The notes beneath the pieces were generated by a model, which was not told where the DNA came from, ran no database searches, and saw nothing but the letters and a program-made list of their open reading frames with translations. From an uncultured Prevotellaceae bacterium (lineage in GTDB: Bacteria; Bacteroidota; Bacteroidia; Bacteroidales; Bacteroidaceae): 64,000 bases of DNA. Positions 3 through 24,837 of the stretch are shown here, one piece after another (positions within the stretch are counted from its first letter, which is position 1; every line of letters starts with the position of its first letter). The stretch is taken from contig CACZPU010000008.1 of assembly GCA_902783165.1 (NCBI GenBank), positions 3,487-67,486 on the forward strand, in the 5' to 3' direction. Both the position numbers and the translations under genes were made by a program.

Positions 3-728
3 AAGAAAGTATTTGTATGTGGACCAGCCTGTTTCTATGTCGCTCGCAGTTTGGAGCAGGTGAAGGTGGACATGGCCTATAGCCAGAATCCGGTGAAGAT
101 TCTTGGAGTGAGCGGCGGAGTTGCCTATGGCGCTCTTGGTGCCACCCACCACAGTTTGCACGACATTGCCGTGCTGCGCACCTTTCCTGGCATGACCGTC
201 TGTCTACCATCCGACTGGCGTATGACGAGAAAGCTGGTGAAATTCCTTGTTGATTTCAACAAGCCATGCTATGTGCGTGTTGGTCGTGCTGCTGTTCCAG
301 ATGTTTATGAGAACGATGATTTCGATTTCGAGTTGGGCAAAGCTATCCAGTTGTTGGATGGTAGCGACCTGACCATCGTTGCGGCAGGCGAAACTGTTTA
401 TCATGCTTGGCAGGCTGGTCTGCAGTTGAAAGAGAAGGGCATTTCTGCACGTGTGCTCGACTGCTCATGGATTAAGCCCTTTGATGAAGAAGCCATCCGC
501 AAGGCTGCCAGCGATACAGCCCGTATCATCACAGTTGAGGAGCACTCGCGTTTTGGCGGTCTGGGTGCCATGGTGTGTGAAACCATTTCCGAAAATCCCG
601 TTCCTGTTCGCATTATCGGTATACCCGACGAGAATGTGGTGCACGGTACCAATGCCGAAATATTCCACCACTATGGAATGGATGCTGAAGGAATTGTGAA
701 AGCAGCGCTAGATTTTGTTAAATCATAA
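3..728 (+). CDS. Transketolase C-terminal (pyrimidine-binding) subunit, 5' end outside window; AptB-like candidate
   Basis: Frame is open from position 3 (KKVFVCGPACFYVARSLEQVKVDMAYS). Motifs THHSLHD, YVRVGR and TVEEHSRFGGLG are typical of split transketolase beta subunits. Confidence 0.85.
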   Translation, partial: KKVFVCGPACFYVARSLEQVKVDMAYSQNPVKILGVSGGVAYGALGATHHSLHDIAVLRTFPGMTVCLPSDWRMTRKLVKFLVDFNKPCYVRVGRAAVPDVYENDDFDFELGKAIQLLDGSDLTIVAAGETVYHAWQAGLQLKEKGISARVLDCSWIKPFDEEAIRKAASDTARIITVEEHSRFGGLGAMVCETISENPVPVRIIGIPDENVVHGTNAEIFHHYGMDAEGIVKAALDFVKS

Positions 729-761
729 TTTGAAGAACCAGAAACCTGTTGCCATTGCAAG

Positions 762-2309
762 ATGAATCAGAGAATTATTGCCATTGACCAGAGTACATCG
801 TCGACCAAGGCATTGCTGTTCGACGAGCAGTGCCATATGATAGCCCGTACCAATGTGGATCATCAACAGTATTATCCGCAGACAGGTTGGGTGGAGCACG
901 ATGCAGAGGAGATTTATGAAAACATGGTGGAAGCTATTCGATTGCTTGTGAAGAAGTATATGGATTGTTGTCCACAAGGCAATGAATGCTCACCCAAACC
1001 GCAAGGCGACCCTGTTTCAGGGTTCTCAGCTTCCGACTCCCAGTTCAGTCTCTGTATCACCAACCAAAGAGAAACCGTTGTGGTGTGGAACAAGCTTACC
1101 GGCAAACCCATTGCACGTGCTGTGGTATGGCAGGACACTCGTGGTGGTGAACTCTGTCGCCAACTGCGCAGCGACGCCAAGACGGCTGACATGGTGATGA
1201 AAAAAAGCGGACTGCTCATCGATCCCAATTTTTCTGCATCGGGTGTGAAATGTCTGCTCGACCAGGTGGAGGGTGCTCGTGAGGCTGCTGCCCGTGGCGA
1301 ACTGCTGATGGGAACCATCGATACATGGCTTGTGTGGAAATTGACAGGCGGACGGGTGCATGCCACAGACTATACCAACGCCTCGCGTACCATGCTGTTC
1401 AATATCCACACCATGGATTGGGACGACGACCTGCTACAGCTGTTCGATATACCACGCTCGATGATGCCAGAGTTGAGGCCATGTGATGCCATCTATGGGG
1501 AGACAACCGTGGAGGGTGTATTTGAGAACCCCATACAGATAGCTGGTGTGTTGGGCGATTCGCACGGAGCCCTGGTAGGCCAGATGTGTTTCAAGCAGGG
1601 TTCTGGCAAGGTGACTTATGGCACAGGTTCCAGCGTCATGGTGAATATCGGTGAAGAGCCATTGCCAGCCCCAGAAGGACTGGTTACAAGTGTCGGTTTC
1701 TCCGCATTGGGCAGGACATGGTATGGCTATGAGGGGAATATCTACAGCACTGGCGCCACCTTGAAATGGATAGCCGACCAATTGCAACTGGTAGGACATC
1801 CCTCGGAAATGGAGGCTCTTGCAACGAGTGTCGACGACAATGGCGGCGTATATATCGTGCCGGCTTTCTCTGGGCTGGGAGCACCTTGGTGGCAAAGCAA
1901 TGTGAAGGGAGCTGTTTTTGGTCTTACGTTCGCTACCACGAAAGCCCATTTTCTGCGTGCTGCCTTGGAAAGCATTGCCTATCAGATAAAAGACCTTGTC
2001 GACGTTATGGCGCAAGCCACTGGTGGCAAGTTGAGTGAAATATGTGCTGACGGTGGTCCTACAAAGAACCGTTTCCTTATGCAGTTCCAGGCCGATATGC
2101 TCAACACACCTGTGGTGTGCACTGAGGTCGATGACGCTTCGGCTCTTGGTGCCGTTGTCATGAACGGTCTTGCCCGTGGTGTGTGGACAAGTTTCAACGA
2201 TGTTGTGGGATTCCGCAAGGTGACCCAAATTTATCGTCCACAAGCTTCGCCTTCTACCGTCCAGTTGTATGAAGGCTGGCGCCAGGCTGTGAGTCAGTTG
2301 ATCAAGTGA
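762..2309 (+). CDS. FGGY-family carbohydrate kinase (glycerol kinase-like)
   Basis: IDQSTSSTK, WVEHD, TNQRET, WQD, TDYTNASRT, GDSHGALVG, TYGTG and DGG motifs. Confidence 0.85.
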   Translation: MNQRIIAIDQSTSSTKALLFDEQCHMIARTNVDHQQYYPQTGWVEHDAEEIYENMVEAIRLLVKKYMDCCPQGNECSPKPQGDPVSGFSASDSQFSLCITNQRETVVVWNKLTGKPIARAVVWQDTRGGELCRQLRSDAKTADMVMKKSGLLIDPNFSASGVKCLLDQVEGAREAAARGELLMGTIDTWLVWKLTGGRVHATDYTNASRTMLFNIHTMDWDDDLLQLFDIPRSMMPELRPCDAIYGETTVEGVFENPIQIAGVLGDSHGALVGQMCFKQGSGKVTYGTGSSVMVNIGEEPLPAPEGLVTSVGFSALGRTWYGYEGNIYSTGATLKWIADQLQLVGHPSEMEALATSVDDNGGVYIVPAFSGLGAPWWQSNVKGAVFGLTFATTKAHFLRAALESIAYQIKDLVDVMAQATGGKLSEICADGGPTKNRFLMQFQADMLNTPVVCTEVDDASALGAVVMNGLARGVWTSFNDVVGFRKVTQIYRPQASPSTVQLYEGWRQAVSQLIK

Positions 2310-2369
2310 TGCGACGATGATAGAACAAAGAACCATTTTTGAATCAAATAACAATCAAACATAAACATT

Positions 2370-3794
2370 ATGAAGAACGGAAAGACTTGCTTCGGGGTCA
2401 TCATCGGCACCCGTGCCTATTTTAATTCAGAACTTGCACGCGATGTTCGCAAACAACTTCTGAAAGTTATTGAGGAACAAGGTTATGAATACGTAATCCT
2501 TCCTGAAGATGCCACACCAACAGGAAGCAGTTCGATTGAAACGCTGGAAGACGGTGTGCTCTGTTCAGAGCTTTTCCGCCAGCACCGAGATGAGATAGAT
2601 GGTATCATTGTCAGTCTGCCAAACTTTGGTTTCGAGATAGGTATCATTAATGCTATCAGCCGTGCAGAACTGAATGTGCCTATTCTGGTTCAAGCATGTG
2701 ACGACGAGAACGACAAAGTGGATTTGGACAGCCGTCGTGATGCTTTCTGTGGAAAGATATCTGTTTGCAATAACCTCTATCAATATGGCATCCCATTCAC
2801 CGACACCACATTGCACACCTATTCTATATATAGCGATACACTGGTGCAGGACATCAACAAGTTCGCCGCTGTTTGTTGCGTGGTGAACACCTTGCGTCAC
2901 TGCCGTATTGGCCAAATAGGAACCCGTCCGTTAGGTTTCAACACTTGTCGTGCCAGCGAGAAACTCTTGCAACGTAGCGGCATCACTGTTGTGCCTGCAG
3001 ACCTCTCGGAATTGCTTTTTGCTGCAGATAAGATTGCCGACGACGATCCTGCTCTGCTGAAAAAGATGGAGGATGTGCGTGGTTATGCAAGAGTGCCAGA
3101 GGCTTATGAAGAAAAGTTGAAGACACAGGCCAAGTTTGGCGTGGCTGTGGAAAACTGGGTGAAAGTGAACAAGGTGGATGCTGTTGCTCTTCAGTGTTGG
3201 GACTCTCTGGAAGTGAACTACGGCTGTGCTCCTTGCATCACCATGGCCATGTTGGGCGATATGGGCATTCCTTGTGCTTGCGAGACCGACATAGCCGGAG
3301 CCGTTTCAATGCTGGCATTGCATCTTGCCTCTGGTAAGGCTTCCGCTTTGGCAGACTGGAACAACAACTTTGCCGAAGACCGCAACAAGTGTGTCTGCAC
3401 ACATTGTGGTAATTTCCCCAAGTCGTTTGTGGGTAACAACGATGTGAAACTTGGTCCGTTGGGTGTACTGGGACGTACACTTGGCAAGGTACGCACATTT
3501 GGAGCTGTCTATGCTAAGGTATCAGAGGGCGACTTCACCTTCTTCCGTATTTCCACCGACGATCCGCGTGGTTGTATCAAAGCCTATCTTGGCGAAGGCA
3601 ATATCACCAATGAGCCTTACGGAATGGATGGTTGCATTGCCGTGACCAAGGTGGACAACCTCCAGAAGCTGATGAAATTTATCTGCAAGAACGGATTCGA
3701 GCACCATGTGGCATTGGTACGCAGCCATGTGGCAGAGATTGTTCGCGAGGCCATAGAGACCTATCTCGGTTGGGAACTTTATGTTCACGAGTAG
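2370..3794 (+). CDS. L-fucose/L-arabinose isomerase family sugar isomerase
   Basis: 474 aa ORF with LPNFGFE, RRDAFCGK, CETD, DWNN, HCGN and C-terminal FEHH, recognised as the fucose-isomerase-related family. Confidence 0.75.
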   Translation: MKNGKTCFGVIIGTRAYFNSELARDVRKQLLKVIEEQGYEYVILPEDATPTGSSSIETLEDGVLCSELFRQHRDEIDGIIVSLPNFGFEIGIINAISRAELNVPILVQACDDENDKVDLDSRRDAFCGKISVCNNLYQYGIPFTDTTLHTYSIYSDTLVQDINKFAAVCCVVNTLRHCRIGQIGTRPLGFNTCRASEKLLQRSGITVVPADLSELLFAADKIADDDPALLKKMEDVRGYARVPEAYEEKLKTQAKFGVAVENWVKVNKVDAVALQCWDSLEVNYGCAPCITMAMLGDMGIPCACETDIAGAVSMLALHLASGKASALADWNNNFAEDRNKCVCTHCGNFPKSFVGNNDVKLGPLGVLGRTLGKVRTFGAVYAKVSEGDFTFFRISTDDPRGCIKAYLGEGNITNEPYGMDGCIAVTKVDNLQKLMKFICKNGFEHHVALVRSHVAEIVREAIETYLGWELYVHE

Positions 3795-3820
3795 TGGCTT
3801 GTAGTGAGAAATAAAATGCA

Positions 3821-3853
3821 AAAAGTCTCGACTCATGGAGCCGAGACTTTTTT
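3821..3853 (+). terminator. Rho-independent terminator of the sugar operon
   Basis: AAAAGTCTCG (3821-3830) pairs with CGAGACTTTT (3842-3851), followed by a T run. Confidence 0.8.
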
Positions 3854-4009: not shown

Positions 4010-4017
4010 TATATTTG
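4010..4017 (+). promoter_or_regulatory. Bacteroidota -7 promoter box
   Basis: TATATTTG matches TAnnTTTG, about 80 nt upstream of the 4099 ATG. Confidence 0.6.
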
Positions 4018-4098: not shown

Positions 4099-5316
4099 AT
4101 GAGAAAATTTTCAATTGTTTTGTTGTTGCTGATGTCGATGGTAACAGCATTTGCCCAAAACCCGAACCCCAAGAAAGATTACATCAAACTGGCTAATTAC
4201 GATGAGAGTAAGATACCCAACTACACACTGCCCGATGTGATGGTGTGCAACGACGGAACACGTGTCACCTCCAAGAATGAGTGGGAGAAGAAACGCCGAC
4301 CGGAAGTGCTGGCCATGCTGACGGAGTATATGTATGGCAAGATGCCTGTTGTAAAGAAACGGCTGCCTGCCACGGTGACAACCACGGAGAATGTTACTAT
4401 TGGTGGCATTTCGGCTGTAAGAAAGCTAATAGATATGTCGCTGAGTACCAAAGCCAATGCTACCCATGTGGAAGTTCAGCTCTATTTGCCTGCTGGCAGT
4501 CTGCAAAAGAAAACACCTGTGTTCGTAGGTATGTGCTTTGGCAAGAACGAGGTGGTGACAGGTAGACAGAAAGACACTTGGCAGCTGGAACGTATCTTGA
4601 GTCATGGCTATGGACTGGCCACTTTCTGCTATACCGATGTGGCACCAGACAAAATACTTGATGTGGTGACAGGTGTGCAGACCGACTACTACCAGCCAGG
4701 ACAGAGATATCCCATGCCAGATGAATGGGGAAGCATTGCCGCGTGGGCATGGACAGCCAGCCGTGTGGTAGACTATCTGGAGACCGACAAGCAGGTGGAT
4801 GCCAGCCGTGTGGCGGTGATTGGCCATTCTCGTCTGGGCAAGGCTGCTCTGTGGGCAGGTGCTACAGACAAACGTTTCGCGCTCACCATCCCTGTGAACA
4901 GTGGTTGTTGCGGTGCTGCTCTCTCTAATAGGAAGATTGGCGAAACAGTGGAATGTGTGAACGACCACTTCCCCTATTGGTTCAATGGCAATTTCCTGCA
5001 GTTCGGCAACCGCGAACAACGCATGCCCTTCGATCAGCACTTTGCTGTTGCCTTGTGTGCCCCACGTGCTGTATATATCGCCTCTGCCAGTGAGGATAAT
5101 TGGGCTGACCAACGCGGAGAGTTCCTTGGTGGATGGCACGCTAATCCTGTTTATGCGCTTTATGGAATGAAGGGAGTGGCAGCCGACCAATTGCCTGCCA
5201 TCGACCAACCAGTGACTGCAGGGCAGGTGGCTTATCATATCCGTACAGGCCGCCATGCAGTGTTGGCATTTGACTGGGAGCATTTCTTGATATATGCAGA
5301 TAAGGTGTTCAAATAA
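4099..5316 (+). CDS. Secreted CE15-like (glucuronoyl esterase family) alpha/beta hydrolase
   Basis: Signal peptide ending TAFA-Q, nucleophile elbow GHSRLGK, WGSIAAWAW, and EDNWAD and GRH motifs. Confidence 0.8.
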   Translation: MRKFSIVLLLLMSMVTAFAQNPNPKKDYIKLANYDESKIPNYTLPDVMVCNDGTRVTSKNEWEKKRRPEVLAMLTEYMYGKMPVVKKRLPATVTTTENVTIGGISAVRKLIDMSLSTKANATHVEVQLYLPAGSLQKKTPVFVGMCFGKNEVVTGRQKDTWQLERILSHGYGLATFCYTDVAPDKILDVVTGVQTDYYQPGQRYPMPDEWGSIAAWAWTASRVVDYLETDKQVDASRVAVIGHSRLGKAALWAGATDKRFALTIPVNSGCCGAALSNRKIGETVECVNDHFPYWFNGNFLQFGNREQRMPFDQHFAVALCAPRAVYIASASEDNWADQRGEFLGGWHANPVYALYGMKGVAADQLPAIDQPVTAGQVAYHIRTGRHAVLAFDWEHFLIYADKVFK

Positions 5317-5408: not shown

Positions 5409-6968
5409 ATGAATAAGAAGACAATGATTACGATGCTGGCTGTGTTAGTGATGGGATGCCAGCAAATCAGCGCACAGTCAAGACTTACGCGCGAACAAGT
5501 GGGAGCTGCATGCATGCCGGCTGAAGTGGTGCCAATAGAGGCTCCGTTTGATATGCCTCAGCTGAAACGAAATGTTTTTCCTGACCTTACTGTAACAGTG
5601 AAACTGAAGAAGGCAGATAAGAAAGGGCTGATTACCGAGAAAGTGCAGGCTGCCATCGACGACGTAAACGCTAAGGGCGGCGGCACAGTGATTATTCCCC
5701 AGGGAGAATGGAACACGGGGCGCATCATCCTAAAGAGTAATGTAAACTTGCATATTCCTGAAGGTGTCACCCTGAATTTCAGTAGTGAGGTGAAAGACTA
5801 TTTGCCAGTGATGTTCACTCGTAGCGCAGGAATAGAGGGAATGTCGGTGGGCGCACTCATTTATGCATACGAGCAGGACAATATCGCCATCACGGGCAGA
5901 GGGCTTTTGGTAGGTCCTCCTATGGATGCTCCTCTTCGCAAAGCCTCTGTGAATTATGGAAACTATGACAGGAATTTTGACTATTCTGTTCCGCCAACAC
6001 AGCGCTTTTACGATGGTGTTGACCGTGGCGGAAAAATCTTCGCTCCGACATTCATCGGACCTGTTCGTTGCACAAATGTGTTGATAGAGGGGGTGTCATT
6101 ATTGCGTTCGCCATTCTGGAACGTAGTGCCCACCTATTGTGAGAATGTGATTATACGTGGTGTGAATGTTGAGTCGGAAGAACCTTGGCATATAGATTGC
6201 GGCGACGGCATGGATATTGAGTCGTGCAAGAATATTCTGATAGAATACTGTACGGTGAATACAGGCGACGATGGATTTACCATCAAGTCTGGACGTGGTG
6301 AAGACGGTTTGCGTGTGAACAAGCCAACGGAGAATTTGGTGATTCGCTACTGTTTGGCCAAGAAATGTCATGGTGGTGTGACTTGTGGCAGTGAAACCGC
6401 TGGTATGATTCGCGATGTATATGTGCACGATTGTGTGTTCGATGGTTCAAGTGTGGGTATTCGTTTCAAGACCCGCAGGCCGCGTGGTGGTGGCGGTGAG
6501 AATTTGTATTACGAACGCATCACGATGAACAATGTGGGCAGTGCCATTAAGTTCGACATGCTGGGAGCAGCCATTTATGTGGGCAATGCTTCTCAACGAG
6601 TATTAATGCCTCACAATCAGTTCACACCCGTCTATCGAAACATCAAAATTCGTGATCTTGACATCAACAATGCCAACTACTTCTTGAATGTCATTGGCAT
6701 CCCCGAGTCTCCGGCTATGAATGTGCAGATTCAGAATGCGAAGTCATCGTCCAAGCGACTTATGGCCTTGCATGATATAAATAATCTGTTAGTGGAGAAC
6801 TGCCAGTTGAAGTCGGAGGAGAACGTCATAGACATTCTCGACGGCAGGAATATGACATTCCGCAACATCTCGTTCATCACTCCCAATGGGAAAGTAGAGG
6901 TGAAGAAGGATGGTAGCTTGGTGGAGAACAATCATTTTGAGAATTGTTCACCAAAGATAACGGAATAA
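5409..6968 (+). CDS. Glycoside hydrolase family 28 (polygalacturonase-like), secreted
   Basis: GDGMD, TGDD, IKSG, CHGG and RFK motifs, a beta-helix-like pattern and an N-terminal signal peptide. Confidence 0.88.
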   Translation: MNKKTMITMLAVLVMGCQQISAQSRLTREQVGAACMPAEVVPIEAPFDMPQLKRNVFPDLTVTVKLKKADKKGLITEKVQAAIDDVNAKGGGTVIIPQGEWNTGRIILKSNVNLHIPEGVTLNFSSEVKDYLPVMFTRSAGIEGMSVGALIYAYEQDNIAITGRGLLVGPPMDAPLRKASVNYGNYDRNFDYSVPPTQRFYDGVDRGGKIFAPTFIGPVRCTNVLIEGVSLLRSPFWNVVPTYCENVIIRGVNVESEEPWHIDCGDGMDIESCKNILIEYCTVNTGDDGFTIKSGRGEDGLRVNKPTENLVIRYCLAKKCHGGVTCGSETAGMIRDVYVHDCVFDGSSVGIRFKTRRPRGGGGENLYYERITMNNVGSAIKFDMLGAAIYVGNASQRVLMPHNQFTPVYRNIKIRDLDINNANYFLNVIGIPESPAMNVQIQNAKSSSKRLMALHDINNLLVENCQLKSEENVIDILDGRNMTFRNISFITPNGKVEVKKDGSLVENNHFENCSPKITE

Positions 6969-12023: not shown

Positions 12024-14573
12024 TTATTTCGCAGTGTCGGCGAGTTGGGTGACTGCGAAATGAATATTTCGGGTGAGTGTACTGACACGGTCTTGGTCTG
12101 TGGCAAACACACGGATGGTGTAAAATCCATTCTTACGAGGTGCTTGGATGAGATATTTGCCATCTCCCTGTTCCTTGCACTCCATTCCATTGTTATCCAT
12201 TATCACAAATATCGGGTTCTTGTTGTAACCGGCAAAATAGAGTTTCATGTCCACGGTTATCTTTTCACCTGCCTTCAAGTATCCATGTGGATGAGTCAAC
12301 CAGTCAAGATATTCTTCCAGGTTCGTGAAACCATCGCCATCTTCGTCAGCATTCGCGTCTGAGAAATCACCGGCAGCTGATTTCGGGTTGCTTCCTTTCA
12401 GTTCCTCCCACCAGTTGGGTAGTCCGTCGTTGTCGCTATCAAATCCTTTTTGACGATGCACTTCTCTCACTGGATTCGCCTCGTCGCCACCACAGTCTTT
12501 CTCATCGTCTATCAATCCCTTGAGTCCGCTGTTGCTGCCAACGGCCGAATAAGTACCGTCCAATGTTTCTTGGATGATTCGCTGGTCATGAATATCCAAA
12601 GACGGCATGTTGCAGCCAACATCCGACATGACATTCTTCCAGGCCTCGCGTGCACTCTCAATCTTTGCCAGCGAGGGGAAGAAAGGACGATCAGCCAATG
12701 GTTGCCAGTCAACTTTCTGCTGGCTGCGTTGCCGCCTGCCGTTTGCCCTTTGCGATGGAGGTGCCTTGGTGGGGTCGTCGCCGTACACTTCCCAGTTAAT
12801 GACACGCCCAGAAGGTACAAAGAATCGGTACGTGTCTCCCTCCTTGTCATCCACCTGCTTGCCCGTAGGGCATTCCTCGCGCACATTGCCACTTACGTAA
12901 GCTGATTGAGAGCCTTTGCCAGTGCCTTCAAGGTCGAGACTGAAGATGAACTTGTTGTGGGTGGCAGGACCCTCTTTGTAATAGTTGTTCACAAAGTTAA
13001 TCTCATGGGCACCGCCATCACAAGCGCGTCCACCCCAGTTATAGCACACATTATTGAACAAGTCGAGCCTGCCTGCATAAAAGCCCGCACCATCCAAGGC
13101 GCCGCTCATGCTCCAGTTTCTTCCTTCGTTATGTGCCAGCAGATTGTGGTGATAGGAACTGATGTCCCCGCCAATCGTAGCTGCATATCCGTGGCGGGTG
13201 CCCTTAGGATAGTTTTTATGGCCAGCCACATTCAACGCCTCTGCAATGATATTATGTTGGAAGGAAATGGTCTTTGCCCCACGACTGCTGAATCCCTCGT
13301 CCATACTCCATGCGATGCTGCAATGGTCCACGATGGAATTCTCACCGCCAGCACATCCCATGCCGTCGGAAGTACGTCCGCCGCCGAGGCGATGACGGAT
13401 ATAACGACAGATGGCATCGTGGCCGATACCAAAAGATGCCCCTCTCAACAAGATGCCTTCGCCTGGGGCAGTCTGGCCTGCCAACGTGACATACTCGCGC
13501 ATTCCTAATCCTCTCTTCAGATAGATGGTGCCTCCGACATCAAAGATGATTGTACGCGGACCATGCAGGTTTTCCAATCCATAACGTAAGGAGCCTGGTT
13601 GGTTGTCATCGTTCAGGTTTGTCACGTGATATACCATGCCCCCTCTGCCACCGATGGCATATTTTCCATAGCCCTCGGCACTGGGGAATGCCAAACGACG
13701 GGGACGGAACGTCCAAATTATTCCTTCTGTTACCTTACCTTCTGCATCCTCCTCGTCCACACGCCAGTAGTATGTATCTTTGCAATTCAGATTTTCAAGC
13801 CAATAGTAGGGGTCACGTGTCAGCCGCACCTCTTTAAGGTTATTTTTGTCAGTGCCTGCATAAAGATGATGTTTTACGGCATTCTGTGCCCCGTCCCATT
13901 TCAGTAAGGCTTTTCCGTTGTCGGCATTTGCATGCAAGTCAAGGTCTGCTGGAATCGGGTTTTGAGCTCTCAGTTTTGGATTAATTTCATCGAGAACTAA
14001 TGCGTTGATACACAAATTTGAAGAAAACATACCATTCAGGGCAGCCTCAGACTGTGGGCGATAGACAATCACCACATCCTTTCCCTTCTTGACATCAAAG
14101 GTGAGATACGATTGTCCTGCATCAGTGGCACGCAAAGCCCTTGAGGTTTGTTCTACATTCTCCAATTTCTTTACACCGTCCACAAAAACATCGATTGCGG
14201 GAGCCTTACCCGTGCTGACATTGTTGTGGTATGCCAAAAGTGAATGACTGCCAGCGCTCAAACCACTGATTGTGACGAGAACACCCGCTTGACAACCCAA
14301 ACCGTCGCCCACTAAACGGTCGTGGCGTTGTACACCATCCTTCCACCATACGCAAGATATTTGTCCATTCTTCTCGGGCGCTACGGTCAGAAGGATGTTT
14401 TTATCACGGTCTATTACCTTTGTCTCTTTCTGTGACTGATGTATTGCCCACGGTAAATATCCATTGGCAGTCACTTGTCTGGGTTGACGTCCCTCCAAAT
14501 TGAAATCAATTTTCTGGGCATATAATGGCATCAAGCACACACACACCAACAGCAGCGTCACAAACCTTCTCAT
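12024..14573 (-). CDS. Multidomain polysaccharide lyase family 1 (pectate lyase-like), secreted
   Basis: AFPSAEGYGKYAIGGRGGMVYHVTNL, GSLRY, GQTAPG, VDHCSIAWSMDE and DSDNDGLPNWWE motifs. Signal peptide ending LYA-Q. Confidence 0.88.
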   Translation of the reverse strand: MRRFVTLLLVCVCLMPLYAQKIDFNLEGRQPRQVTANGYLPWAIHQSQKETKVIDRDKNILLTVAPEKNGQISCVWWKDGVQRHDRLVGDGLGCQAGVLVTISGLSAGSHSLLAYHNNVSTGKAPAIDVFVDGVKKLENVEQTSRALRATDAGQSYLTFDVKKGKDVVIVYRPQSEAALNGMFSSNLCINALVLDEINPKLRAQNPIPADLDLHANADNGKALLKWDGAQNAVKHHLYAGTDKNNLKEVRLTRDPYYWLENLNCKDTYYWRVDEEDAEGKVTEGIIWTFRPRRLAFPSAEGYGKYAIGGRGGMVYHVTNLNDDNQPGSLRYGLENLHGPRTIIFDVGGTIYLKRGLGMREYVTLAGQTAPGEGILLRGASFGIGHDAICRYIRHRLGGGRTSDGMGCAGGENSIVDHCSIAWSMDEGFSSRGAKTISFQHNIIAEALNVAGHKNYPKGTRHGYAATIGGDISSYHHNLLAHNEGRNWSMSGALDGAGFYAGRLDLFNNVCYNWGGRACDGGAHEINFVNNYYKEGPATHNKFIFSLDLEGTGKGSQSAYVSGNVREECPTGKQVDDKEGDTYRFFVPSGRVINWEVYGDDPTKAPPSQRANGRRQRSQQKVDWQPLADRPFFPSLAKIESAREAWKNVMSDVGCNMPSLDIHDQRIIQETLDGTYSAVGSNSGLKGLIDDEKDCGGDEANPVREVHRQKGFDSDNDGLPNWWEELKGSNPKSAAGDFSDANADEDGDGFTNLEEYLDWLTHPHGYLKAGEKITVDMKLYFAGYNKNPIFVIMDNNGMECKEQGDGKYLIQAPRKNGFYTIRVFATDQDRVSTLTRNIHFAVTQLADTAK

Positions 14574-14901
14574 AATAAGTCTTTTTTGTTTTAATAGATA
14601 TTGGAATTATTTTTACATATAACGTTTCTCTGCCAATTTGTACTCAATAATGAATGGCAACACCATTTGGTTTCCTTAAAGCGTCGTAATGTGGAAAAAC
14701 GTAGAGAATGTACAAAGATTCTAATGCATCCACCAAGTAAGATAAATACAAATAGGAAACGACAGCACAACAGGATTATCCGTAAAATACATGAAACGCT
14801 CTGCTTGATTGTTAAGAGAACCTCCCGTCAGGGAATAGTGAAATTTACTAATACATTATTTAATTTATGGCGAAATTCTTCTTTGTTTCAGATTTATTTT
14901 T

Positions 14902-14909
14902 TATTTTTG
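14902..14909 (+). promoter_or_regulatory. Bacteroidota -7 promoter box of rnr
   Basis: TATTTTTG, with TTTG at 14882-14885 upstream and the ATG at 14934. Confidence 0.65.
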
Positions 14910-14933
14910 CGACAAATAACTAAAACCTCTATT

Positions 14934-17147
14934 ATGTCAAAAAGTAAAAATAAGGGTAGCAAACGTCTGACTAAAAGAATGCTGGTCGAGATGCTGAGCA
15001 ACATGTTTCAGCATAGTCCAAATGAGACGTTCAGTTTCAAACAAATATTCAAACAGTTGCATCTTACTACACATCCTGCCAAGATGCTAGCAATTGACAT
15101 CCTGGAAGAGATGGCATGGGACGACTATTTGAGCAAGGTTTCAGAGAACAGCTACCGCCTCAACACACAGGGGCAAGTGCTCGAAGGAACGTTTATCCGC
15201 AAGGCAAACGGCAAGAACTCGTTTGTTGCCGATGGGAGCGACAAGCCTATTTTTATTGCCGAGCGCAACTCGATGTTCGCCTTGAATGGCGATCGCGTGC
15301 GTGTTACGATGATGGCGCGAAGAGAAAAGCACATCAAGGAGGCCATGGTCACCGAGATATTGCAACGTGCTCACGACCAAGTGGTAGGACGCCTTCAGGT
15401 GGAACACGACTTTGCATTCTTGATTCCTGATGGCAATTTGTTTGTACACGATGTATTTATTCCGAAGAAAAAGCTCAAGGGTGGAAAGAACAACGACAAG
15501 GCGGTGGTGAAAATCACCCAGTGGCCATCGGAAGACAGCAAGAATATAGTAGGCGAGGTGGTGGACATTCTTGGTAAAATTGGTGAGAACAATGCCGAGA
15601 TGCATGCCATTCTAGCACAATACGGGCTCCCATACAAGTATCCGAAAAGCGTAGAGGAGGCTGCCAACAAGATTGATCCCGGTATTACCGACAGGGAAAT
15701 CGCCCGTCGTGAGGATTTCCGCAAGGTGACAACCATCACCATCGACCCACACGATGCAAAGGATTTCGACGATGCGCTAAGCATTCGAAGAATAGGCGAT
15801 GCTTTTTCACCCAAGAGTTCGCAGCTTTGGGAGGTCGGCGTACACATTGCCGATGTGTCGCACTATGTGAAAGAAGGAAGTATTATTGATAAGGAAGCAC
15901 AAAAGCGTGCCACCAGTGTATACCTTGTCGACCGCACCATACCGATGTTGCCCGAGCGCCTTTGCAACTTCATCTGCTCACTCAGGCCCGATGAAGACAA
16001 GCTCTGCTACAGTGTCATCTTCAAGCTTGATGCCGAAGCCAACGTCAAAGACTGGCATTTGGCTCACACAGTCATTCGCAGCAACCGGCGTTTTGCCTAC
16101 GAGGAGGTTCAGGACATTCTCGAGAAGAATGGAGTGATTGACGGAACCGGTCAGCCAGCACCTGCCAAGAAAACCTATGAGGGTGAATTGGCCGAAGAAC
16201 TGGTAACGCTCGATGCACTAGCCAAGAAACTCAGGGAGAAGCGGTTTAAGAGTGGTTCGGTGAAGTTCGACCGTGAAGAATTGCATTTCGATATCGATGA
16301 ACAGGGCAAACCCACACGTGCTTATTTCAAGAAATCGAAAGACGCCAACAAGCTAATCGAGGAGTTTATGTTGCTTGCCAACCGCACTGTGGCAGAATCG
16401 ATAGGGAAGGTAAAGAAGGGCGACAAAGCCAAGACACTGCCTTATCGTATCCACGACCAGCCAGACCCCACTAAGCTAGAACGCCTACGCCAGTTCATCA
16501 CCCGGTTTGGCTATAAGGTCAAGACAACAGGAACAAAGGGCGAGATTAGCCGTTCGCTTAACAAGCTGATGGATGATGTAAATGGCAAGCGCGAGCAGAA
16601 TGTCGTTGAAAGCGTTGCTCTGCGTGCCATGATGAAAGCCAAATATAGTGTGCATAATATTGGCCACTACGGACTTGCCTTCGACTATTACACCCATTTC
16701 ACATCGCCCATCCGCCGCTATCCCGATATGATGGTGCACCGTCTGCTCACGCGCTATCAGGAGGGTGGCCGCTCTGCTAACAAAGACCACTATGAGGAGC
16801 TATGCGAGCACAGTAGCGATATGGAGCAAATAGCACAGAATGCTGAACGCGACAGCATCAAATACAAGATGGTGGAATTCATGTCTGAATTTGTTGGTGA
16901 AGAGTTCGATGCGCATATCAGTGGCATCACTTCCTATGGCATTTATGCAGAGATAGACGAAAACCATTGCGAGGGAATGATTCCTATGCACGACCTTGAT
17001 GACGACTACTATGAGTTTGATGAAAAGAATTATCAGTTGGTAGGTCGCCGCCGCCACCATAAATACATGTTAGGTGACCCCATACGCATCAAGGTGGTTA
17101 GAGCCGATGTGGAAAAGCGACAATTGGACTTCTGTATTGCCGAGTGA
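14934..17147 (+). CDS. rnr: Ribonuclease R
   Basis: RNB motifs TIDPHDAKDFDDA and HYGLAFDYYTHFTSPIRRYPD, plus a C-terminal S1 domain. Start moved from the ORF-track 14601 to the ATG after the promoter box. Confidence 0.93.
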   Translation: MSKSKNKGSKRLTKRMLVEMLSNMFQHSPNETFSFKQIFKQLHLTTHPAKMLAIDILEEMAWDDYLSKVSENSYRLNTQGQVLEGTFIRKANGKNSFVADGSDKPIFIAERNSMFALNGDRVRVTMMARREKHIKEAMVTEILQRAHDQVVGRLQVEHDFAFLIPDGNLFVHDVFIPKKKLKGGKNNDKAVVKITQWPSEDSKNIVGEVVDILGKIGENNAEMHAILAQYGLPYKYPKSVEEAANKIDPGITDREIARREDFRKVTTITIDPHDAKDFDDALSIRRIGDAFSPKSSQLWEVGVHIADVSHYVKEGSIIDKEAQKRATSVYLVDRTIPMLPERLCNFICSLRPDEDKLCYSVIFKLDAEANVKDWHLAHTVIRSNRRFAYEEVQDILEKNGVIDGTGQPAPAKKTYEGELAEELVTLDALAKKLREKRFKSGSVKFDREELHFDIDEQGKPTRAYFKKSKDANKLIEEFMLLANRTVAESIGKVKKGDKAKTLPYRIHDQPDPTKLERLRQFITRFGYKVKTTGTKGEISRSLNKLMDDVNGKREQNVVESVALRAMMKAKYSVHNIGHYGLAFDYYTHFTSPIRRYPDMMVHRLLTRYQEGGRSANKDHYEELCEHSSDMEQIAQNAERDSIKYKMVEFMSEFVGEEFDAHISGITSYGIYAEIDENHCEGMIPMHDLDDDYYEFDEKNYQLVGRRRHHKYMLGDPIRIKVVRADVEKRQLDFCIAE

Positions 17148-17219
17148 TAATGAAAACGGGGCCATGTGCTGAGGATTTGCTTGACCATTATACCCTGCGT
17201 TTGTAGCGTGTTATGTTAT

Positions 17220-17266
17220 AAAAGCATTCACCACCATAGTTTCAAGCTATGGTGGTGAATGCTTTT
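17220..17266. terminator. Bidirectional terminator between rnr and cysS
   Basis: Perfect 20-bp stem AAAAGCATTCACCACCATAG / CTATGGTGGTGAATGCTTTT with a 7-nt loop. Confidence 0.85.
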
Positions 17267-17289
17267 TGTGATTGTTGTTCTACAAGATG

Positions 17290-18780
17290 TTACTTGTTCA
17301 GTTTCCAGGTGACGCCATCCTTAGTGTCTTTAACCTCAAATCCTGCGGCAGCAAGTTCATCGCGAATTTGGTCGCTGGTAGCCCAGTCTTTAGCAGCCTT
17401 GGCCTTGGCTCGGAGGTTGAGCACCATGTCCACCACCTTGCCATATGCTTCTTCACGAGCATCGTTGTTTGCTCCCTTGTCGTTGCGCAGACCAAGGAGG
17501 TCGATGGCAAAGAGATGCATAGTGTCGGAAAGCTCTTTTAGGCAGTCGGCACAGATTTGTGCCTTATGGTCGAGGAGAGTGTTCACCACGCGGCATGCCT
17601 CAAACAGATGGCTGATGACAATCTGTGTGAGCAGGTCGTCGTTCATAGCGTCGTAGCATTTCTGTCGCAACGACTTTACAAATTGTTCGGTATCAGGGTC
17701 GCACTTGGCGGATACTGGTACGCGTTCCAGATCATTGATGCCGTTCATCAGTCGCTCCAATCCCTTTTCGCTGGCTATCAGCGCTTCGTTGGAAAAGTCG
17801 ACAGTGCTGCGATAGTGGGCAGAGAGGATGAAGAAGCGAATGGTCATAGGCGAATACGCATGCTCTAACGATGGATGATTGCCGGTAAAGAACTGCTCGA
17901 GAGTGATGAAGTTGCCGAGCGATTTGCCCATCTTCTGCCCGTTGATGGTAATCATATTGTTGTGCATCCAGTATTTCACCATGTCGTCGCCCTGGCTGGC
18001 GGTGGCTTGAGCTATCTCGCATTCGTGATGGGGGAAGACCAGGTCCATGCCTCCGCCGTGGATGTCGAAATGGCTGCCAAGATATTTGCGTCCCATGGCG
18101 GTGCACTCGCAATGCCATCCGGGGAATCCGTCGCTCCATGGGCTTGGCCAGCGCATGATGTGTTCGGGCGAAGCCTTCTTCCATAACGCGAAGTCGGCTT
18201 GGTTGCGCTTCTCGCCTACGCCGTCGAGTGTGCGACTCTCGTTGATGACATTCTCAAGTGTGCGGCCAGAAAGTTTGCCATAGTGGTATTTCTTGTTGTA
18301 GGCCTCAATATCGAAATAAACAGAGCCGTTGCTTTCGTAGGCGAACCCGTTGTCGAGGATTTCCTGCACCAATTGCTGTTGCTCAATGATGTGGCCGGTG
18401 GCATGTGGTTCAATGGATGGTGGTAGCACGTTAAGTGCTTCCATGGCCTGGTGGTAGCGGTTGGTGTAGTATTGCGCTATCTCCATGGGTTCCAGTTGCT
18501 CGAGCCTAGCTTTCTTGGCAATCTTGTCTTCTCCCTCATCGGCATCATGCTCCAGGTGTCCCACATCGGTAATGTTGCGTACATAGCGCACTTTGTATCC
18601 GAGGTGCTTCAGGTAACGGAAGAGTATGTCGAAGGTGATGGCTGGCCGTGCATGTCCCAGATGGGGGTCGCCGTATACGGTAGGGCCGCAAACATAAAGT
18701 CCTACGTTGGGTGCATGCAGGGGTTCGAAACGCTCCTTCTGGCGGTGAAGGGTATTGTATATCAACAGTGTCTGTTCCAT
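17290..18780 (-). CDS. cysS: Cysteine--tRNA ligase
   Basis: [41 protein letters not shown] and KMGKS motifs. Confidence 0.97.
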
Positions 18781-23713: not shown

Positions 23714-23862
23714 AAGTTTATGGTGCAGACAGTGAGAGGTTTATATGGAAACTCGGCTTTCTTATTCGTAAAATGGTTTATCTTTTCGTCGTGATGTTTT
23801 TGATATTCATTTAGGTTACTTTCCCAAGAGAAATGCGTCCTTTTGGAAATAATGTACCTATT

Positions 23863-24837
23863 ATGAAAAAACTACTGTTATGTCTTTGCGCAACACTCAT
23901 GATAATAGGTTGTGCTAAAACAAAAGATGTGTATATGTTTACATCTCACCGTGAGCCAGCTCTCGACGGTTTGCATTTTCTCTATAGTTATGACGGTTTG
24001 CATTGGGACAGTCTTCCCGGTTCGTGGCTTCGCCCTGAGATAGGCAACAAAGAATTGTACCAAAATTATCTTACCAACCGCGTGGACACACCGAAATTCT
24101 ATCCGCAATCCATGATGCGCGATCCATCGATACTTCAAGGCCCCGATGGAACTTTCCATTTGGTGTGGACATTGAGCTGGAACGGAGAACAGGCCTTCGG
24201 TTACGCCTCTTCCAAAGATTTGATTCATTGGAGTGAACAGCGAAAGATAGATGTGATGAAAGATTCCACAACCAATAATGTGTGGGCGCCTGAGCTGTTT
24301 TACGATGAGGACCAACAATTGTATTACATTATATGGTCCTCCGCTATACCGAGAGAACGTTATACAGATGCAGACAAACTAGGAACCAATGGTTGTCATC
24401 GAGCCTATTATACGACAACCAAAGATTTTAAAACATTTGCACCTACACGTCCTTACTATGATCCGGGATTCAATTCCATTGACGGATTCTTGCTGAAACG
24501 TGGCAAGAAAGACTATGTTCTGATTATCAAAGACAATCGCAAACCTGGCTATAGCGACTTGTTTTGTGCCTTTGGAGAATCCCCCGAGGGGCCGTTTAGC
24601 AATCCTTCGGTGAAATTTGCGCCCACTTATTCGGAAGGGCCATGTGCCGTGAAGCTGGGCGATGAGTGGATTATCTATTTCGACGTTTATCGCCAGGGGC
24701 GCTATGGAGCTGTGAGCACTCGCGACTTCAAGACATTCACACCTGCCGACGACCGTATTTCCATTCCTGCAGGACACAAGCACGGAACAGTGTTTAAAGT
24801 CAAGGAAAGTGTGTTGAAGAAGATGCTAAACAAATAG
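23863..24837 (+). CDS. GH43-like five-bladed beta-propeller glycosidase, lipoprotein
   Basis: Lipobox IIGC with MRDPSI, SKDLIHW, WAPE, SIDG and SEGP motifs. Start set at MKKLL. Confidence 0.78.
   Translation: MKKLLLCLCATLMIIGCAKTKDVYMFTSHREPALDGLHFLYSYDGLHWDSLPGSWLRPEIGNKELYQNYLTNRVDTPKFYPQSMMRDPSILQGPDGTFHLVWTLSWNGEQAFGYASSKDLIHWSEQRKIDVMKDSTTNNVWAPELFYDEDQQLYYIIWSSAIPRERYTDADKLGTNGCHRAYYTTTKDFKTFAPTRPYYDPGFNSIDGFLLKRGKKDYVLIIKDNRKPGYSDLFCAFGESPEGPFSNPSVKFAPTYSEGPCAVKLGDEWIIYFDVYRQGRYGAVSTRDFKTFTPADDRISIPAGHKHGTVFKVKESVLKKMLNK

Follow-up and report, generated by a model that had tools for sequence, protein, structure and literature searches.

D-Apiose is a branched pentose and one of the signature sugars of rhamnogalacturonan-II (RG-II) and of the apiogalacturonan of duckweed and seagrass. 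A transketolase-type pathway for its catabolism, with the proteins ApsI (EC 5.3.1.38), AplK and AptA/AptB, was reportedly described by Carter et al. in 2018 (MetaCyc PWY-8089); it occurs in Pectobacterium carotovorum and in Escherichia coli ST131 and ST1193. Here we compare this pathway with an operon at the start of a 64,000-nucleotide stretch of contig CACZPU010000008.1 from an uncultured Prevotella-like member of the Prevotellaceae, a bacterium of gut or rumen (G000:C8:3487-67486; hereafter the window). The operon consists of four genes, encoding the N and C subunits of a split transketolase (TK-N and TK-C), an FGGY kinase and an isomerase of FucI/AraA fold, and ends with a hairpin. Because of the homology of all four proteins, the derived active-site residues that kinase and TK-C share with AplK and AptB, the gene order and the apiose-releasing enzymes in the genome, it most probably encodes D-apiose catabolism by the known non-oxidative transketolase route. 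Read in this way, the operon is a Bacteroidota version of the described pathway, re-annotated from under generic names, and no new pathway.

In E. coli SE15, ECSF_RS02700, RS02710 and RS02715 are aplK, aptA and aptB, D-apiose as the only carbon source supported growth of strains with the aplK-aptAB cluster, and the E. coli cluster is said to differ from that of Pectobacterium by 'no apsI' (PMC13001218). The supplements of that paper contain no description of apsI. Inspection of the SE15 cluster region showed two short-chain dehydrogenase/reductase (SDR) oxidoreductases in place of an isomerase gene. Proteobacterial AplK orthologues with 70-72% identity to E. coli AplK were found in three further clusters. 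In Rahnella, the order is substrate-binding protein, DUF2291, ATPase, permease, SorC regulator, AptA, AptB, PF02952 isomerase and AplK, and Pasteurella testudinis carries the same gene set. In Serratia ficaria, a regulator, AptA, AptB and the isomerase are followed by AplK and a GH1 gene, and nearby genes encode a PF13204 apiosidase and a phosphotransferase system (PTS). As none of these three clusters contains an isomerase other than the PF02952 protein, and the lack of an isomerase in E. coli matches 'no apsI', the characterized ApsI likely belongs to this PF02952 family.

The window operon resembles the proteobacterial clusters in its split transketolase, in the GDSH and GTGSS motifs of its kinase, in an AptB-type exchange of Asp469 for Leu and in a PF02952 isomerase that is 44% identical, over its full length, to that of the Rahnella AplK-AptAB cluster. 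A CUT2 ATP-binding cassette (ABC) transporter with DUF2291 also occurs in related Bacteroidota loci. However, the window proteins are only 35-44% identical to their proteobacterial counterparts, the genes follow the order TK-N, TK-C, kinase, isomerase, and the operon sits in a Bacteroidota setting next to carbohydrate-active enzymes, with no adjacent transporter or regulator. Its kinase also differs from AplK by an Asn at the position of GlpK Tyr135 and by a Cys-rich insert of 20 residues, and where the E. coli cluster has two SDRs, the window operon has its isomerase.

The three open reading frames (ORFs) of the operon within the window are all encoded by the + strand; 33 bp separate TK-C from the kinase and 60 bp the kinase from the isomerase, and the hairpin begins 26 nt past the isomerase stop. 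An earlier note on this DNA had described three co-oriented genes followed by a terminator, a CE15 and a GH28 gene; ORFs, hairpin and domains were all located. A transketolase N subunit, which the note had envisaged upstream, is encoded on the contig 8 bp ahead of TK-C. About 530 bp of non-coding sequence lie 5' of TK-N, preceded by an outer-membrane beta-barrel gene.

We infer the substrate and each reaction step from the homology, active-site residues, gene order and genomic association that we observe. The isomerase would convert D-apiose to apulose, and the GlpK-derived kinase would place a phosphate onto one hydroxymethyl of the glycerol-like end to give apulose-4-phosphate. The split transketolase would then transfer the C1-C2 glycolaldehyde unit to glyceraldehyde-3-phosphate, yielding xylulose-5-phosphate and dihydroxyacetone phosphate (DHAP).

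Active sites of the kinase and the split transketolase

The window kinase scored 550.9 bits against the GlpK equivalog model TIGR01311, below its cut-off of 590.35 (for reference, E. coli GlpK scored 767 and E. coli AplK 495). Across 151 Bacteroidota genomes, the scores were bimodal, with GlpK at 626-771 bits in 70 genomes and five sub-cut-off matches at 530-578 bits. Four of the five, namely the kinase of the window itself and three others that were fetched, all (4/4) adjoin isomerase and transketolase genes, and the fifth (in G174) is a truncated gene. Two of the genomes, G121 and G183, each contain both a true GlpK and a kinase of the window type. In a maximum-likelihood tree, the GlpKs of E. 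coli and Bacteroidota formed one clade with a support of 100, and the window-type kinases formed a separate clade with a support of 98.

GlpK contacts glycerol through Arg83, Glu84, Tyr135, Asp245 and Phe270 (PMC3245297). The window kinase, which has the same fold as GlpK (E. coli P0A6F3, PDB 1GLA), retains Arg83, Glu84 and Asp245 as well as Trp103, but two of the five contacts are altered (Y135 to N and F270 to S), and Gln246 and Gln247 are replaced by Ser and His. The same D-S-H sequence together with Ser270 (GlpK numbering) was present in 20/20 aligned kinases from related loci with the same gene set (hereafter the module) and in the AplKs of E. coli, Rahnella, Serratia and Pasteurella. In contrast, all full-length GlpKs aligned read D245-Q-Q and all GlpKs aligned have Phe270, so that GDSH and YGTGSSV in the window kinase stand at the sites of GDQQ and GTG[CS]F in GlpKs. 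AplK has Leu at the position of Tyr135. A GlpK scaffold with smaller residues near the C2 side would fit apulose, that is, glycerol with a glycoloyl group on C2.

As it scores below the TIGR01311 cut-off, falls outside the GlpK clade and carries AplK-type active-site changes, the window kinase is, judged by its sequence, not a glycerol kinase, in agreement with the earlier note. The window-type kinases examined, in contrast to GlpK, also sit in operons with a transketolase and an isomerase. Were the operon instead a set of three unrelated housekeeping genes, as automatic annotation would have it (the glycerol kinase of the genome, a split transketolase of generic type and an isomerase for L-fucose or L-arabinose), one could point to NF000756, a less strict NCBIfam model of the GlpK subfamily, which the kinase passes with 588 bits (cut-off 498), and to the assembly, which contains no other GlpK. 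We consider this scarcely credible, because the kinase departs from GlpK in all the respects just named, true GlpK and module kinase coexist in G121 and G183, the four-gene order is kept across phyla, and the isomerase fits no FucI or AraA equivalog.

For the transketolase, we took replacement of Asp469 in the motif GEDGPTH (E. coli numbering) as the criterion of an AptB-type active site. In canonical transketolases, this Asp binds the 2-hydroxyl of the aldose. A canonical full-length transketolase is encoded elsewhere in the genome, on contig C127, indicating that the operon pair is an extra one; this canonical enzyme reads GEDGPTH(E) and keeps Asp469. The operon subunits are 43% (TK-N) and 35% (TK-C) identical to AptA and AptB of E. 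coli SE15. TK-C of the window reads YGALGATHH, all module TK-Cs read YGALG[AST]THH, and the AptBs of E. coli, Rahnella and Serratia read YGPLASTHH, giving a common motif YG[AP]L..THH in which Asp469 is replaced by Leu. The transketolase of an isomerase-linked locus without a kinase (L110) reads KDGATHQ and retains the Asp. Loss of Asp469 would suit a reaction that releases a ketone (DHAP) in place of a 2-hydroxy-aldehyde.

The Cys-rich kinase insert, relative to GlpK and AplK, spans positions 957-1016 of the window (kinase residues 66-85), with three Cys in YMDCCPQGNECSPKPQGDPV, and is confined in the alignment to the five closest Prevotella relatives.

The isomerase and conservation of the module

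The AlphaFold model of the isomerase (mean predicted local distance difference test score, 94) had L-arabinose isomerases as its top PDB fold matches (template modelling score 0.82, 13% identity), with FucI matching more poorly. It shares the three-domain fold of AraA and FucI (PDB 4r1q, 4f2d, 1fui) but only 12-15% identity with them. A PDB search with its sequence gave no match and a profile search only a marginal one to AraA; among NCBIfam models, neither the FucI nor the AraA equivalog matched, and similarity to the sulfoquinovose isomerase model SftI was weak (111 bits vs a cut-off of 700). Residues E305, D307, D329, H345, H445 and H446 are conserved and, mapped by position, appear to lie at places like those of the metal and catalytic residues of AraA, with acidic or His residues at positions similar to those of its Mn2+ ligands.

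In a tree of the family, the window isomerase grouped with the Rahnella, Serratia and Pasteurella cluster isomerases (support by the Shimodaira-Hasegawa-like approximate likelihood-ratio test, 88), apart from relatives in other contexts. The suggestion of the earlier note that the fucose-isomerase-family protein supplies the isomerase step is plausible, and the 44%-identical family provides the only isomerase in the proteobacterial AplK-AptAB clusters. If the fold of ApsI were to differ, the PF02952 clade would be a non-homologous and the commonest apiose isomerase, also feeding a second downstream route, found in 6 related loci (see below); we regard this reading as rather unlikely. The FucI-like isomerase is not specific to Bacteroidota, since it accompanies AplK-AptAB in Proteobacteria too: its clade occurs in Bacteroidota, in Gammaproteobacteria and, with one locus each, under the labels KSB1, Chloroflexia and Sphaerochaeta.

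The wider family is mixed, and relatives at 42% identity or less lie beside aldolases, GatZ, AP_endonuc_2 or a kinase-less transketolase. This diversity, the identities of merely 35-44% to the proteobacterial enzymes and the absence of the apiosidase family GH140 from 3/8 isomerase-positive genomes would be compatible with the same enzyme logic acting on another rare or branched sugar from pectin or another plant glycan. The earlier note had left room for another rare pectin sugar, which we find less likely than apiose and, all in all, improbable: no substrate would suit both a GlpK-derived kinase and an Asp-less transketolase except a ketose whose tertiary C3 carries two hydroxymethyls, kinase and transketolase have the very signatures of the apiose-cluster enzymes, and the isomerase clusters with the proteobacterial ones.

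To describe the distribution of the module, we used 120 other Prevotellaceae genomes. Within the family, the isomerase occurs only here and there, in 7/120 of these genomes and in 0/5 from the same genus, and the order TK-N, TK-C, kinase, isomerase was kept in all seven, with varying flanks. The top isomerase matches of this Prevotellaceae host were from Segatella and Prevotella (81-88% identity), and Segatella bryantii DSM 11371 (L026) carries the same operon with an isomerase 85% identical to that of the window. A scan of species genomes gave 80 loci, mostly from Bacteroidota and many of them ending at contig edges, with the kinase in 68/80, both transketolase subunits in 56/80 and all four genes in at least 56/80. 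This recurrence indicates that the module is not a chance juxtaposition. The more distant Bacteroidota G121, G183 and G167 also carry the four genes, which are 38-48% identical and have an ABC transporter between them.

The usual annotations of module genes are 'glycerol kinase', 'transketolase' and 'L-fucose isomerase family', and a look-up in a protein atlas returned generic names only. Two signatures offer a simple means of re-annotation, GDSH plus GTGSS for the kinase and YGxLxxTHH for the transketolase C subunit. The operon was found in 7/120 and GH140 in 19/120 of the other Prevotellaceae genomes. Telling gut and rumen Prevotellaceae that can burn apiose from those that merely release it through GH140 helps to explain pectin cross-feeding.

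Possible release and uptake of apiose, and alternative substrates

The genome itself encodes enzymes for the release of apiose. On contig C96, a GH140 apiosidase (PF13204, 366 bits) is clustered with GH95, a BT_1020-like enzyme and GH2, and GH127 and GH78 genes lie on contig C34. In another genome (G011), the module is followed within 10 kb by a GRP-type permease, a binding-protein-like gene and GH43-like, GH28, GH95 and GH140 genes. Among the Prevotellaceae, GH140 was present in 5/8 isomerase-positive vs 15/113 isomerase-negative genomes, a difference that is only indicative because related genomes are not independent.

For the neighbourhoods, we counted genes within 8 kb of the module or isomerase in 90 related loci, a set drawn from a narrow isomerase alignment and nearly all from Bacteroidota. 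Most frequent were a GRP permease (24/90) and a DeoR regulator (23/90), followed by a CUT2 binding protein (16/90) and DUF2291 (9/90). At 9/90 loci, CUT2 ABC genes are accompanied by DUF2291, which is also the case in the E. coli cluster. GH140, GH28 and GH78 were each found at 5/90 loci and GH95, GH127 and GH2 each at 4/90. The link to pectin drawn in the earlier note thus holds at the level of the genome, through the GH140, GH95, BT_1020-like and GH2 genes on C96, and in related loci, but not for the adjacency of CE15 and GH28, as CE15 was found at only 1/90 loci. We therefore rejected CE15 and GH28 as members of the system; their adjacency is not conserved, and they have their own promoter box, TATATTTG, indicating a separate transcription unit.

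Several observations weigh against the apiose assignment. The window kinase is in overall similarity nearer to E. coli GlpK (43% identity, 446 bits) than to E. coli SE15 AplK (37%, 317 bits; 37-38% across the E. coli and Rahnella AplKs). In the tree, AplK falls outside the GlpK clade but in a polytomy, giving the window kinase no specific AplK pairing; monophyly of module kinases and AplK was not rejected (approximately unbiased test, p = 0.095). As assembled (91% complete), the genome contains neither a second GlpK nor a GRP-type permease, no transporter or regulator gene adjoins the operon, and the isomerase-positive Prevotellaceae without GH140, mentioned above, belong here too. A module-linked ABC binding protein (L085) had the Thermotoga maritima ribose-binding protein 2fn8 as its best PDB match (E = 6e-103). 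Finally, in Thermotoga, equivalent genes in a ribose-induced operon were predicted to be D-arabinose enzymes (PMC3750489, 2013).

The last two points would be expected if the operon served a linear pentose route, for example D-arabinose to D-ribulose to D-ribulose-5-phosphate, in which the transketolase only adds pentose-phosphate capacity. The FucI fold indeed includes known D-arabinose isomerases, and PDB 3a9r is among the fold matches. The Thermotoga operon apparently has the same module of isomerase, kinase and split transketolase with a ribose-type CUT2 ABC transporter. However, it also contains a ribokinase and RbsD, its D-arabinose assignment is itself a prediction, and its genes were likened to those of the window by description, not by sequence. 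Moreover, a linear pentulose-5-phosphate requires no dedicated transketolase beside the canonical one on C127, the derived active-site changes of kinase and transketolase are common specifically with AplK and AptB, and the recurring neighbours are RG-II enzymes including GH140. We thus hold a linear pentose route to be very improbable.

The binding proteins also bear on uptake by a D-apiose system. The Rhizobium etli binding protein 4ry0/5ibq, found in the same match list as 2fn8, was reportedly crystallized with ribose and with apiose, so that ribose-type binding proteins would be compatible with apiose. The module-linked substrate-binding protein is 33% identical to that of the E. coli apiose cluster, and BLAST revealed no detectable similarity among the DUF2291 proteins of module-linked and E. 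coli clusters. Overall, we regard the binding-protein evidence as neutral.

Locus layout and further observations

The positions of the operon, its terminator and its neighbours are given in Table 1. Elsewhere, the window holds mostly housekeeping genes, such as those for MiaB, RNase R and CysS, among which a GH43-like and a GH29 gene are interspersed.

Table 1. Features at the start of the window. Positions are those of the window, except those prefixed L002, which refer to the contig start.
Feature	Position	Strand	Domains and remarks
AptA-like transketolase N subunit, 277 aa	L002:2447-3280		Transketolase_N; entirely upstream of the window
Complete transketolase C-subunit gene, 308 aa	L002:3288-4214		start 198 bp ahead of the window
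AptB-like transketolase C subunit, last 241 aa in the window	3..728	+	Pfam Transket_pyr + Transketolase_C
GlpK-like FGGY kinase, predicted AplK-type apulose kinase, 515 aa	762..2309	+	FGGY_N + FGGY_C
FucI/AraA-fold aldose-ketose isomerase, predicted D-apiose isomerase, 474 aa	2370..3794	+	Fucose_iso_C as sole Pfam match
Palindromic hairpin terminator	3820..3852		15-bp stem, 3-nt loop, T-run on + strand
TAnnTTTG box, perfect Bacteroidota -7 box (TATATTTG)	4010-4017		precedes CE15/GH28
CE15 esterase (GCE_fung)	4099-5316	+	neighbour outside the conserved module
GH28 (Glyco_hydro_28)	5409-6968	+	neighbour outside the conserved module

The RG-II-type cluster on C96 (G000:C96:6000-22000) contains, besides GH2, GH140 and GH95, a flavodoxin/ODP protein, a PfkB kinase, a 438-aa protein without a Pfam match and the BT_1020-like enzyme of 1110 aa. 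Contig C118 encodes a DeoR regulator that has 63% identity to those found with the module, but its neighbours are unrelated major facilitator superfamily transporter and racemase genes.

In a Serratia ficaria-like locus (L154), the genes flanking AptA, AptB, isomerase and AplK encode a PF13204 apiosidase, a PTS EIIBC protein and GH1, which suggests apioside uptake by the phosphotransferase system in an enterobacterium.

A stand-alone RibB-like gene of about 205 aa, similar to 3,4-dihydroxy-2-butanone-4-phosphate synthase, lies beside the transketolase/kinase/isomerase module in 13/90 loci (L042, L043, L050-L053, L056, L077, L084, L088, L090, L098 and L099). RibB chemistry includes a carbon-skeleton rearrangement. 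The window's own genome has a single RibB homologue, on C83, which is probably housekeeping. Proteins of PF07632 (Sde182 nucleoside-hydrolase-like, formerly DUF1593) adjoin the module in 7/90 loci: L042, with four tandem copies at about 12700-17400, L020, L051, L076, L085, L104 and L142. In G037 and G002, a PF07632 gene follows a SusC/SusD pair. The PF07632 proteins are candidate glycosidases for apiose-containing substrates.

The isomerase also occurs in a second context without a transketolase (L081, L083, L087, L094, L100, L105 and L148). These isomerases are 55-58% identical to that of the window and are accompanied by a non-GlpK FGGY kinase, a DRL-like oxidoreductase (PF21135; best PDB match, Brucella DRL 3upl, E = 2e-99), a Zn-dependent alcohol dehydrogenase, DUF4432 and a GRP permease 57% identical to the one linked to the transketolase module. 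In L094, this context is flanked by two GH140-like genes. This gene set may process the same sugar by a downstream route not yet described.

Within the window, an 849-aa ORF at 12024-14573 on the - strand had no Pfam match at E <= 1e-5. The GH43-like/BT_3657-like_N protein (334 aa, 23833-24837, +) is encoded 20 kb from the operon, and proteins 67% identical to it adjoin the apiose module in four other loci (L019, L064, L070 and L073).

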